A stretch of 4,502 bases of DNA from a virus (Duplodnaviria; Heunggongvirae; Uroviricota; Caudoviricetes): IMG/VR virus record IMGVR_UViG_2634166457_000004, positions 1 through 4,502 of that record; one strand, given 5' to 3'. This document shows, one piece after another, positions 73 to 2,793 of the stretch (within the stretch, counting starts at the first letter, position 1; the number at the start of each line of letters is the position of its first letter). The position numbers were made by a program, and so were the translations under genes. Under the pieces are notes generated by a model that saw only the letters and a list, made by a program, of their open reading frames with translations, was not told the DNA's origin and did no database searches.

Positions 73-264
73 ATGATCGCCCGGCCCGGGGATATCCGGG
101 ATGTCGCACAGCCGTGTGCGGAGGTGCTGGTTCGCCTGAGGAAGGCGGAGTACATCACAGCGCGACGTCCGGCGGGTCAGAAAAAGAAACATGATGCGGA
201 GCATAGCGAATGTGGAACCTTTTGCGACGAACCCGAAAAAACCAGAAATCAGGACGTGATGTAA
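73..264 (+). CDS. hypothetical small protein (63 aa); uncertain whether real
   Basis: ATG-initiated ORF in the gap between the upstream gene (stops in all three frames within nt 1-42) and the portal gene. Its first ~35 codons use host-like codons (CTG, GCG, CCG, CAG, ATC, GTG). Weak RBS-like GGGT about 6 nt upstream. The 3' end overlaps the portal start by 55 nt in another frame. Contains a His/Cys cluster (HDAEHSECGTFC). No recognisable family. Confidence 0.25.
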   Translation: MIARPGDIRDVAQPCAEVLVRLRKAEYITARRPAGQKKKHDAEHSECGTFCDEPEKTRNQDVM

Positions 265-1574
265 AAGAGGCGGGCTGGACCAGCCTGTTTCAGGCGGTGG
301 CTGAGCCCTTTGCCGGCGCCTGGCAGCAGGTCGTGAAAGCCGATCCGGAAAGTGTCCTCTCCTTTCATGCGGTGTTTTCTTGCATTTCGCTGATATCCCA
401 GGATATCGCCAAAATGCGGCTGCGCCTGATGCAGACGGATACACAGGGGATCCGTCGTGAAAAACGGCAGGGGGATATTGCCCGTCTCTGTCGTCGCCCC
501 AATGCACAGCAGAATCGTATCCAGTTTTTTGAACTGTGGCTGAACGCCAAACTGCGTCACGGCAATACGGTGGTGCTGAAAATCCGTAACTCCCGGGGGC
601 AGATCAAAGAACTGCGTATTCTGGACTGGAGCCGGGTTGAACCTCTGGTGGCGGATGACGGCGAGGTGTTCTATCGCATTACACCGGACCGGAACTGCGG
701 GATCACGGAGGCGGTGACGGTGCCTGCCCGGGAAGTGATCCACGACCGGTTTAACTGTTTTTTTCATCCGCTTGTGGGGCTGCCACCGGTGTATGCCGCC
801 GGGCTGGCGGCCACGCAGGGGCATCATATTCAGGCAAATTCGACGTCTTTTTTCAGAAATGGCGGCAGGCCGTCCGGGGTGATTGAGATCCCCGGCAGTA
901 TTACGGAAGAAAATGCGAAAAAACTGAAGAGCAACTGGGACAGCGGGTATACCGGCGAAAATGCCGGGAAAACGGCCATTCTGAGCAACGGGGCAAAATA
1001 CAACCCCACGACGTTTTCACCGGTGGATGCGCAGACGGTGGAACAACTGAAGATGACCGCTGACATTGTCTGTTCGGTGTTCCGTGTCCCGGCCTACAAG
1101 ATTGGAGTTGGCCAGCCGCCTTCCAGTGACAACGTGGAGGCGCTGGAGCAGCAGTATTATTCCCAGTGCCTGCAGACGCTGATTGAGTCCATTGAGCTGT
1201 TACTGGATGAGGCGCTGGAAACGGGGGAAAACGAGAGTACGGAATTTGATGTCACCACGCTGCTGCGAATGGACAGCGAGCGGCGCATGAAAACGCTGGG
1301 GGATGCGGTGAAAAATACGCTGCTGACGCCCAATGAAGCCCGTAACCGGGAGAACCTGCCGCCCCTGGCAGGAGGCGATGCACTGTATCTTCAGCAGCAG
1401 AACTACAGTCTGGAGGCGCTGTCCCGCCGTGATGCCCGTGAAGACCCGTTCGCGTCGTCCGGTAAAACAGCTTCCGAGCCTCCAGCGGTCGCTGCATCTG
1501 ACGGTAATAAGGCCATAAGCGAAACAGAGCGTGATGCAGTGAAGGCGATGTTCAGGGGGATTCTGAAACAATGA
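210..1574 (+). CDS. phage portal protein, HK97 family
   Basis: 454-aa ORF with RBS GGAG (198-201) 8 nt before ATG 210. Conserved blocks match what I recall for HK97-type portals: N-terminus MWNLLRRTRK...W.SLF; central FFRNGGRPSGVIEIPGSITEENAKKL...ENAGKTAILSNGAKYNP...DAQ...FRVPAYKIG; C-terminal LTPNEARNRENLPPLAGGD. Assignment is from memory of the family consensus, not a search. Confidence 0.9.
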   Translation: MWNLLRRTRKNQKSGRDVKEAGWTSLFQAVAEPFAGAWQQVVKADPESVLSFHAVFSCISLISQDIAKMRLRLMQTDTQGIRREKRQGDIARLCRRPNAQQNRIQFFELWLNAKLRHGNTVVLKIRNSRGQIKELRILDWSRVEPLVADDGEVFYRITPDRNCGITEAVTVPAREVIHDRFNCFFHPLVGLPPVYAAGLAATQGHHIQANSTSFFRNGGRPSGVIEIPGSITEENAKKLKSNWDSGYTGENAGKTAILSNGAKYNPTTFSPVDAQTVEQLKMTADIVCSVFRVPAYKIGVGQPPSSDNVEALEQQYYSQCLQTLIESIELLLDEALETGENESTEFDVTTLLRMDSERRMKTLGDAVKNTLLTPNEARNRENLPPLAGGDALYLQQQNYSLEALSRRDAREDPFASSGKTASEPPAVAASDGNKAISETERDAVKAMFRGILKQ

Positions 1575-2470
1575 ATGAACGTGAACTGTCCATTATCCGT
1601 GCACTGGGTGAAGAATTCTCCGCGGTGCTGGAGGAATTACAGCGTATATTTGAGGCGAAGATTGCCGCACAGTCAGGGGCGTTTGAAGAAAAACTGGCTT
1701 CCCTGTCTGTGGTATTACAGAAGTGCGTGACGGGCGATGATGTGCGTCCGATGCTTGAGCAGATGGTGAAGGAGGCGGTAAGCCATATCCCTGCTCCGCG
1801 TGATGGCCGTGATTATGATCCCGATGTTCTGCAGCAGGCAGTGAATGATGCGGTCGCAAATATTCCGGTACCGGCGGACGGCAAAAGTGTCACCCCCGAT
1901 GATGTGCGTCCGATGCTTGAACAGATGGTGAAGGAGGCAGTGAGCCATATTCCTGTTCCGCGCGACGGTCGTGACTACGATCCGGATGTGCTGCAGAAGG
2001 CAGTTCTGGATGCGGTGAGTGCCCTGCCGGCTCCGCAGGACGGGCGTGATGCCACGGCACTGGAAGTGCTCCCCGCGATTGACGATCAAAAATCCTTTCC
2101 CCGGGGCACGTATGCCACACGCCTGGGCGGACTCTGGCGGGCGTATGAAAAAACGCACGGGATGCGGGGATGGGAATGCCTGGTTGACGGTGTGGCGGAT
2201 ATTGACGTCAGCATGACAGGCGAGCGGTCGTTCTCTGTGGTGGTCCGGCAGAGCAGTGGTCAGTGTACGGAAAAAACATTTTCCCTGCCGGTGATGCTCT
2301 ACCGCGGAGTGTTCAGAGCCGGTGAAACCTACCACCCCGGCGATACGGTGACGTGGGGCGGCTCGTTGTGGCACTGCAACAGCATGACCGGTGATAAACC
2401 CGGAGAAGCTCATTCATCAGGCTGGACCCTGGCTGCAAAACGTGGGCGGGATGCAGGAGGTGGAAAATGA
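1571..2470 (+). CDS. hypothetical virion-module protein: N-terminal helical segment, tandem [I/L]PxPxDG repeats, C-terminal CBM5/12-like putative carbohydrate-binding domain
   Basis: 299-aa ORF. ATG 1571 overlaps the portal stop (ATGA 1571-1574) and its own stop overlaps the next start (ATGA 2467-2470). RBS-like AGGGGGA at 1554-1560. Residues 1-55 are Ala/Leu/Glu/Lys-rich with no Pro (helical). Residues 56-163 are two 54-aa tandem repeats. C-terminal residues ~170-299 contain Y-HPGDTVTWGGSLWHC-(12 aa)-GW, resembling the aromatic signature of chitin-binding type-3 / CBM5/12 modules. No capsid, protease or scaffold motif recognised. Confidence 0.75.
   Translation: MNERELSIIRALGEEFSAVLEELQRIFEAKIAAQSGAFEEKLASLSVVLQKCVTGDDVRPMLEQMVKEAVSHIPAPRDGRDYDPDVLQQAVNDAVANIPVPADGKSVTPDDVRPMLEQMVKEAVSHIPVPRDGRDYDPDVLQKAVLDAVSALPAPQDGRDATALEVLPAIDDQKSFPRGTYATRLGGLWRAYEKTHGMRGWECLVDGVADIDVSMTGERSFSVVVRQSSGQCTEKTFSLPVMLYRGVFRAGETYHPGDTVTWGGSLWHCNSMTGDKPGEAHSSGWTLAAKRGRDAGGGK
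1736..2059 (+). repeat. in-frame tandem direct repeat, 2 x 162 nt (copies 1736-1897 and 1898-2059), each containing two ~27-aa sub-repeats with an [I/L]PxPxDG motif
   Basis: Direct comparison: GATGATGTGCGTCCGATGCTTGA(G/A)CAGATGGTGAAGGAGGC... recurs exactly 162 nt apart. The first ~100 nt of the two copies are highly similar, then they diverge while keeping the PxPxDG motif. Protein units: DDVRPMLEQMVKEAVSHIPAPRDGRDYDPDVLQQAVNDAVANIPVPADGKSVTP and DDVRPMLEQMVKEAVSHIPVPRDGRDYDPDVLQKAVLDAVSALPAPQDGRDATALEV. Confidence 0.9.
2455..2460 (+). promoter_or_regulatory. ribosome-binding site (AGGAGG) for the gp6-like connector gene
   Basis: Perfect AGGAGG with a 6-nt spacer before ATG 2467, lying inside the 3' end of the upstream CDS. 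Confidence 0.6.
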
Positions 2471-2793
2471 CGGCATTACTGACACTGGAAGAGGTCAAGG
2501 CACATCTGCGTGTCGACCATGACGCGGATGATGACATGCTGATGGACAAGGTTCGTCAGGCTACCGCCGTGCTGCTGGCCTACATTCAGGGCAGCCGGGA
2601 TAAGGTGATCCGTGAGGACGGTGAACTGATCCCGGGCGAGGCATTAACCCGGATGAAGGGGGCCGCCATGCGACTGACCGGGATGCTGTACCGGAATCCG
2701 GATCTGGCTGAGCGGGAAGAGCTGGTGCAGGGGGAACTGCCATTTTCTGTTTCCATGCTGATTTACGATTTGCGTTGTCCGACGGTGTTGTGA
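2467..2793 (+). CDS. phage head-tail connector (adaptor) protein, gp6-like
   Basis: 108-aa ORF with a strong RBS. N-terminus LTLEEVKAHLRVDHDADDDMLMDKVRQATAVLLAYIQ matches the characteristic L.L.E.K.HLR.D.D.DD.L....I.AA start of gp6-like / Phage_connect_1 proteins. Its size and position immediately before a head-closure gene are typical. Confidence 0.85.
   Translation: MTALLTLEEVKAHLRVDHDADDDMLMDKVRQATAVLLAYIQGSRDKVIREDGELIPGEALTRMKGAAMRLTGMLYRNPDLAEREELVQGELPFSVSMLIYDLRCPTVL

Follow-up and report, generated by a model that had tools for sequence, protein, structure and literature searches.

The 4,502-nucleotide stretch of DNA analysed here (the window) very probably represents the head-completion and neck part of a lambdoid, long-tailed prophage of the BP-4795/2851 type, which encodes its own capsid, scaffold, and protease upstream of the portal gene. 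The gene order of this module is already known, and its capsid-less look is an edge effect. The ORF map of the window agreed with the preliminary description of the interval between the portal and adaptor genes: together with a Pfam search, it placed only the gene of a 299-aa repeat protein there and no protease, scaffold, or capsid gene. The features of the window, all on the plus strand, are as follows.

1 to 41, +, intergenic spacer after the stop of the upstream protease-capsid fusion gene
42 to 264, +, small conserved head-module ORF, broken into 42 to 194 and 73 to 264 (PHROG 829; 73 aa in relatives)
210 to 1574, +, HK97-family portal, 454 aa (PF04860, 273 bits, cut-off 39.1; TIGR01537, 353 bits, cut-off 112)
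1550 to 1554, +, G5 tract in codons AGG GGG of the portal C-terminal motif MFRG (G5, separate genes)
1571 to 2470, +, 299-aa fibre-like protein between portal and adaptor
2467 to 2793, +, gp6-like head-tail adaptor (Ad1), 108 aa (PF05135, Phage_connect_1, 32.8 bits, cut-off 21.2; PHROG 40, "head-tail adaptor Ad1")
2803 to 3153, +, head completion/closure protein, 116 aa (PF05521, 62.1 bits)
3150 to 3596, +, HK97 gp10-like neck/tail component, 148 aa (PF04883, 39.6 bits)
3593 to 3937, +, tail completion/terminator protein (gp17-like), 114 aa (PF11367, 33.8 bits)
3998 to 4502, +, 5' part of the major tail tube gene, 168 codons (PF06199, 27.1 bits, cut-off 23.8)

The Pfam search returned no protease or capsid family match for any ORF in the window. 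The five longest antisense ORFs likewise had no Pfam match, and each lay wholly within a well-supported plus-strand gene; the codon-position GC of the antisense ORFs of 113 to 232 aa mirrored that of the sense genes and was hence uninformative. A scan for promoters and terminators found no more sites than in shuffled sequences, consistent with an uninterrupted late operon.

The window is the final 4.5 kb of a scaffold from Escherichia coli M114 (KQ241476.1; source-scaffold positions 9792 to 14293), and its tail tube gene (13789 to 14293) is cut off by the scaffold end. Window position 1 is the base directly after a scaffold gap of 32 Ns (9760 to 9791), so the possibility of an assembly artefact, raised in the preliminary description, proved pertinent at the window edge. 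The contig before this gap carries, in order, HNH, TerS, TerL, and a 645-aa fusion of Peptidase_S78 and HK97 capsid (7515 to 9452; PF04586, 33.8 bits, cut-off 21; PF05065, 53.4 bits, cut-off 24.2; TIGR01554, 79.4 bits, cut-off 27.5), which lies between TerL and portal and outside the window. The layout is that of a polyprotein that starts with an S78 prohead protease, continues through a coiled-coil scaffold/delta-like linker, and ends in an HK97-fold major capsid protein. The stop codon of the fusion gene (9450 to 9452) falls 3 nt before a duplicate of window positions 1 to 305 that ends the pre-gap contig (9456 to 9759), and there the sequence runs without a break from the capsid gene through the small ORF into the start of the portal gene. 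The absence of capsid and protease genes from the window is therefore an effect of where the window starts and not a property of the element, since the scaffold gap sets the start of the window a few bases past the capsid-gene stop.

Two explanations had been offered for the missing genes, either a rearranged module order with the capsid genes elsewhere or a defective, satellite-like element that borrows its capsid. The latter, in which a co-resident prophage would have to supply capsid, scaffold, and protease, is exceedingly improbable. It draws on the lack of a capsid or protease gene in the 4.5-kb window itself and on the complementation in trans of defective prophages in EHEC-type strains (PMC2669165); however, the same scaffold carries the intact, full-length 645-aa fusion gene directly upstream, in unbroken sequence with the portal start on the pre-gap contig, and the same order occurs in self-sufficient phages and across at least four genera. 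P4-like and PICI-like satellites are defined by the lack of a major capsid gene of their own, which this element possesses. Nor does it resemble a small element with helper-hijacking genes, as late-operon genes from lysis through tail tube are present (holin, lysozyme, an Rz-like lysis gene, HNH, TerS, TerL, capsid, portal, neck, and tail tube on the source scaffold). The link from the window to the capsid gene spans the scaffold gap, and because such E. coli strains can carry several near-identical prophages, the two contigs may differ in the copy from which they derive.

The rearranged order, in contrast, was borne out by the source scaffold and by all relatives examined. Of 78 informative IMG/VR contigs, 76 had the fusion before the portal, as did phages BP-4795, 2851, Lys8385Vzw, and Salmonella FSL SP-016, a Rhizobium phage, and prophages of Klebsiella, Raoultella, and Pantoea. 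The upstream inspection and synteny comparison proposed in the preliminary description thus located protease and capsid in the same prophage, in an order that, judged from these sequences, is a known norm of the lineage. At the nucleotide level, the window matched 93 phage and 1252 E. coli records with 90 to 95% identity. Its portal family, the position of the fusion gene between TerL and portal, and its collinear order and identity all assign it to the BP-4795/2851-type head module, a head type that many Stx1a and Stx2c phages share. Related phages are 50 to 57 kb long with complete tail modules, and Lys8385Vzw is plaque-forming and is reported to yield infectious long-tailed particles on induction (PMC7946995). 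A literature search found nothing specific on protease-capsid fusion in Stx phages.

The description of the region as an intact coupled operon held in part. The remaining window genes are full length and translationally coupled, but one surplus C, at window position 78, shifts the frame of the small ORF and has no counterpart in the pre-gap duplicate, in E. coli O157 493/89, or in phage Lys8385Vzw, and the upstream TerS is split by a 1-bp deletion into ORFs of 99 and 89 aa. These two lesions could mean that the M114 prophage is decaying, with its capsid gene present and particle formation lost through frameshifts, and comparable defects are carried by many EHEC lambdoid prophages (PMC2669165). 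We consider decay possible but on balance unlikely: the overlapping contig ends at the gap carry one private single-base indel apiece within 305 bp, which points to draft-assembly errors rather than true mutations, and the other window genes are full length and coupled. As it stands, the M114 copy may be defective through the TerS and small-ORF frameshifts, or the draft may hold indel errors.

The gene in the capsid slot is no substitute for a capsid gene. Its ORF overlaps both the portal stop and the next gene by an ATGA, and its 299-aa product begins with a long helix (aa 3 to 50); then come two helix-loop repeats of 54 aa each and, at the C-terminus, a conserved beta domain (aa 150 to 299; window 2018 to 2467). 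A repeat search paired copies at 1735 to 1854 and 1897 to 2016 (162-bp spacing, 86% identity), and the number of 162-bp units varies among relatives; Tandem Repeats Finder reported no array in positions 1500 to 2500. For the whole protein, AF2 gave only a poor model from a 16-sequence alignment (pLDDT 60), which was excluded from the fold search, whereas that of the C-terminal domain from a 41-sequence alignment reached a pLDDT of 88. The C-terminal ~50 aa may adopt a CBM5/12-like fold. The match of the protein to PF02839 (CBM_5_12) scored 18.9 bits, under the gathering cut-off of 26.2, and several homologues have a precomputed PF02839 match on record, with scores as deposited. Neither PF04860 nor TIGR01537 matched the protein, NCBIfam holds no model for it, the family profile had no significant match among PDB sequences, and a literature search found no described function for the portal-adjacent protein; neither virion proteomics nor a structure was found for it. 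Portal-adjacent fibre-like proteins form a very large family of ~5400 clusters at 50% identity. We infer the location and role of this protein in the virion: it is most likely a non-capsid virion accessory, a putative fibre at the portal vertex with a glycan-binding-type tip.

The boundary between the portal and the fibre-like gene depends on the length of a single G tract. With G5, as here, the genes are separate; with G6, found in relatives, they merge into one "portal" of 753 to 859 aa. The IMG/VR contigs comprised 94 with G5 and 41 with G6, the fused form accounting for ~30% of E. coli relatives, and the tract had switched independently at least 8 times among 88 flank haplotypes, both states being present in isolated phages. 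Because the G5-to-G6 change fuses the gene to the portal in this ~30%, the 299-aa-type protein has been misnamed "portal protein": databases list its gene as "phage portal protein," "portal pseudogene," or "gp6-like connector," and the "portal" labels of PHROG 2271 and 1289 stem from fused forms. The portal C-terminus in known portals faces the capsid interior, so a C-terminal fusion to the portal is poorly compatible with an external fibre.

The same data bear on whether the 299-aa gene might be the C-terminal part of a once longer portal from which a pseudogenising frameshift has detached it. That would suit the label "portal protein, pseudogene" used by some depositors, the single ORF of 753 to 859 aa across both genes in O157 493/89 and phage 2851, the 859-position "portal" profile of PHROG 2271 that spans both, and the 41 contigs with the fused allele. 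Nevertheless, we regard this origin as very improbable. The split G5 form is the majority and is the one carried by the isolated phages BP-4795 and Lys8385Vzw; in phages of Klebsiella, Raoultella, Pantoea, Salmonella, and Rhizobium the gene stands separate, starts at an ATG of its own, and lacks the G-run, and the Klebsiella gene is directly preceded by a stop codon in its frame. Given this majority, the separate gene in other genera, and the lack of a portal domain in the 299-aa protein, sequence comparison indicates that separate genes are ancestral and the portal fusion is derived. Programmed -1 frameshifting at the G-run was rejected as a conserved mechanism, the run being missing in Klebsiella, Raoultella, and Salmonella and the Klebsiella stop preceding the ATG. 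It also appears quite unlikely that G5/G6 slippage heritably toggles a virion accessory between free and portal-tethered forms rather than being neutral mutational noise.

We conclude that the window belongs to a self-sufficient head module. In this lineage the late operon runs HNH endonuclease, TerS, TerL, 645-aa polyprotein, small ORF, portal, fibre-like accessory, Ad1, head closure, gp10-like, tail terminator, and tail tube. By analogy with the HK97 assembly pathway, the polyprotein would co-assemble on the portal, after which the protease domain would cut away itself and the linker. The fibre-like accessory would associate with the portal vertex, with an N-terminal helical anchor, a stalk of variable length, and a glycan-binding tip. 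For annotation and calls of prophage completeness, the HK97-order expectation (portal, protease, capsid) fails for a very common EHEC head type, and the gene after the portal is misnamed in databases even though its product lacks a portal domain, is fibre-like, and has a predicted carbohydrate-binding-type tip. Such proteins could bear on host adsorption by Stx phages.

Among known systems, the closest likeness is to BP-4795 (Marienburgvirus), in which ORF53 to ORF64 have the same order and sizes from HNH through tail tube. BP-4795 ORF56 is 97% identical to the 645-aa fusion, and the phage shares the 454-aa portal, the separate downstream "portal protein" gene, and the G5 junction. Nucleotide identity is ~94% across window positions 210 to 2001; the match ends at about 2001, a mosaic boundary, and ORF59 of BP-4795 is 461 aa long, with more 54-aa repeat units than the 299-aa protein. 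Phage 2851 (Pankowvirus; the Stx2c prototype) arranges its head and neck genes in the same order, the capsid fusion preceding the portal, but, unlike the window, carries the G6 allele, so that portal and fibre-like protein form one 859-aa ORF. Stalks that are collagen-like or built of repeats, with tips of the CBM5/12 type, occur in phage fibres such as those on the tails of Agrobacterium phages 7-7-1 and Milano and in collagen-repeat proteins of uncultured Caudovirales. In contrast to the 7-7-1/Milano-type fibres, the 299-aa gene sits in the head module beside the portal and not in a tail-fibre region, and its product is sometimes fused to the portal. The HK97 head module (portal gp3, protease gp4, capsid gp5, then gp6) shares its families with this lineage, namely, the HK97 portal, S78 protease, HK97-fold capsid, gp6-like adaptor, and gp10-like protein, and in both an HNH endonuclease adjoins the terminase genes. 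Here, however, protease and capsid are one gene that precedes the portal rather than following it, and the slot between portal and gp6-like gene holds an unrelated fibre-like gene.

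ORF mapping and family scans agreed that no protease, scaffold or capsid family has a match in the window, and on this point the preliminary description was literally correct. The interval between the portal and the gp6-like start, where HK97 carries its protease and capsid genes, is likewise filled as described, by a repeat-protein gene encoding 299 aa that overlaps both neighbors. Long antisense ORFs had no Pfam match and all lay within supported sense genes, in keeping with their earlier reading as artefacts.

Genes on the sense strand of the window
About 42 to 264: small conserved ORF (73 aa in relatives; PHROG 829), overlapping the portal start
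210 to 1574: HK97-family portal gene (PF04860, 273 bits; TIGR01537, 353 bits)
1571 to 2470: 299-aa ORF, with an ATGA overlap with both neighboring genes
2467 to 2793: gp6-like adaptor gene
2803 to 3153: head closure gene
3150 to 3596: gp10-like gene
3593 to 3937: tail completion (tail terminator) gene
3998 to 4502: first 168 codons of a tail-tube gene

An edge effect explains the apparent absence of a capsid gene. Looking up the exact portal protein gave a single contig, scaffold KQ241476.1 of assembly GCA_001186315.2, and cluster members give the organism as Escherichia coli M114. The window matches the final 4,502 bases of this scaffold exactly (positions 9792 to 14293), and its end is the scaffold end. 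Directly before its first base stand 32 Ns (9760 to 9791), and the 304 bases before this gap (9456 to 9759) duplicate window positions 1 to 305, save for two single-base indels, of which each copy has one to itself. The N-run and the duplicated flank with its indels indicate that two contig ends, overlapping in sequence, were joined in the scaffold where the window begins. On the pre-gap contig, an HNH endonuclease gene, TerS, TerL, and a 645-aa gene (7515 to 9452) follow one another, the last with a stop codon that precedes the copy of window position 1 by 3 nt.

Matches of the 645-aa protein
aa 48 to 152: Peptidase_S78 prohead-protease domain (33.8 bits; cut-off, 21)
aa 386 to 635: HK97 Phage_capsid domain (53.4 bits; cut-off, 24.2)
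Protein as a whole: TIGR01554 (79.4 bits; cut-off, 27.5) and PHROG 617, "major head protein"

BP-4795 ORF56 is 97% identical to this protein without gaps, and in their alignment heptad-like charged helices are abundant between the S78 and capsid domains, as would be expected of a scaffold or delta-like segment. The element itself encodes protease, scaffold-like linker, and capsid protein in one 1.94-kb gene, which precedes the portal gene instead of following it. The earlier suggestion that the capsid genes lie elsewhere in a rearranged module order was therefore right, the fusion gene being upstream of the portal in the same prophage.

The operon had also been called intact and coupled, which holds from the portal through the tail terminator but not for the small ORF at about 42 to 264 or the upstream TerS, both of which are broken. 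The small ORF is frameshifted by an extra C at window position 78 that neither the pre-gap duplicate nor the relatives have and that is possibly a contig-end sequencing error. Relative to E. coli O157:H7 493/89 and phage Lys8385Vzw, TerS (scaffold positions 5231 to 5793) has lost 1 bp beside an A-run and so reads as two ORFs, of 99 and 89 aa; the defect may be real or an error of the draft. With a private indel in each of the two overlapping contig ends, both within 305 bp, errors in the draft assembly are no less likely than real decay.

Pfam and NCBIfam scans detected no portal domain in the 299-aa protein. Database names for it and its homologues include "phage portal protein," "portal pseudogene," "gp6-like head-tail connector," and "carbohydrate binding domain protein"; stand-alone homologues are publicly named portal, portal (pseudogene) or gp6-like connector despite being without those domains.

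Regions of the 299-aa protein, N to C terminus
About 50 aa: conserved N-terminal helix
Stalk: 27-aa helix-loop half-repeats grouped into 54-aa units
About 150 aa: highly conserved C-terminal domain

Two copies of the repeat, spaced by 162 bp (1735 to 1854 and 1897 to 2016), are 86% identical. The number of 162-bp (54-aa) units varies, such that the downstream frame in relatives steps by exactly 54 aa (245, 299, 353, 407, 461, 515 or 569 aa; 353 and 407 commonest), and the window carries a short allele. Searched alone, the C-terminal domain retrieved 5,403 clusters at 50% identity (1,866 at E ≤ 1e-10); it was C-terminal in 150 of the 150 matches listed, in proteins mostly of 200 to 500 aa. Collagen repeats replace the helical repeats in some homologues (PF01391; PHROG "collagen like minor tail"), implying trimers. 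With moderate-to-low confidence, we regard the 299-aa protein as a trimeric accessory fibre associated with the portal vertex and bearing a glycan-binding-type tip. It does not stand in for the capsid protein. For BP-4795, 2851, YYZ-2008, 1717, and many Stx1a/Stx2c phages, the nucleotide match extends only to window position ∼2001, the end of the repeat region, yet as proteins their C-terminal domains remain 93 to 97% identical; the break in the match suggests a mosaic recombination boundary within the fibre-like gene.

The portal gene ends in TTC AGG GGG ATT CTG AAA CAA TGA, with the start codon (ATG) of the downstream gene overlapping this stop. The G-run has five Gs (G5; 1550 to 1554) in the window, BP-4795, and Lys8385Vzw and six (G6) in O157 493/89 and phage 2851, where both genes fall into one frame and yield a 753- to 859-aa "portal." Among 135 IMG/VR contigs retrieved via the portal junction, 94 were G5 and 41 were G6 (∼30% of relatives). 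At least 8 changes of state were counted on a UPGMA tree built from 88 distinct flank haplotypes of 1.17 kb (versus 17.5 with shuffled labels), and one identical flank haplotype carried both states; together, these results indicate that the fusion arises recurrently, whether by slippage, by recombination between co-resident prophages, or partly as homopolymer sequencing error. A conserved programmed frameshift is unlikely, given that the G-run is missing from the portal end in Klebsiella, Raoultella, and Salmonella relatives and that in Klebsiella the downstream gene is immediately preceded by a stop in its frame. In a Pantoea prophage, five Gs do stand at the portal 3′ position. The downstream gene is separate in all four of these genera; this, with the Klebsiella stop, shows the separate state to be ancestral. 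G5 and G6 are each found in named phages that have been isolated, suggesting that fusion is tolerated and arguing that the downstream product acts near the portal. A distant relative, a 1,237-aa protein from the representative search (P0145) with 55% identity in the C-terminal domain, is a portal fusion too, with ∼650 aa of stalk separating the portal domain from a CBM-like tip; portal fusion thus also occurs beyond the E. coli G6 allele.

At 90 to 95% identity, the whole window matches 93 phage records, mostly of Stx1a-, Stx2c-, and Stx2a-converting phages, and 1,252 E. coli records of complete genomes. The order annotated in relatives is TerS, TerL, protease-capsid fusion, small ORF, portal, downstream gene, adaptor, and the fusion gene lies directly upstream of the portal on the same strand in 76 of the 78 IMG/VR contigs (of the 135) with at least 2.3 kb of sequence upstream of the portal. 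The alternative that the element is satellite-like and lacks a capsid is rejected, because the same prophage has its own protease and capsid in the lineage-norm order; an assembly artefact at the window edge was found as well. The lineage to which the element belongs as an ordinary member is well sampled and already annotated, and has capsid, scaffold, and protease in one fused gene upstream of the portal. Lys8385Vzw, which has a long noncontractile tail, was induced with mitomycin, plaque purified, and propagated on a laboratory host (PMC7946995). For the Sakai prophages Sp6, Sp9, Sp10, and Sp12, Asadulghani et al. described a slightly different head-region gene organisation, and they observed long-tailed particles with elongated heads (PMC2669165). 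The fused-gene head arrangement is already known: the order from TerS through the adaptor, with the fusion gene before the portal, is annotated in O157:H7 493/89, Lys8385Vzw, BP-4795 (genus Marienburgvirus), 2851 (genus Pankowvirus), and Salmonella phage FSL SP-016, and gene calls with Pfam matches arranged the genes likewise in prophages of Klebsiella, Raoultella, and Pantoea. Rhizobium phage RHph_X2_26 also has its capsid gene ahead of the portal, but two other genes intervene.
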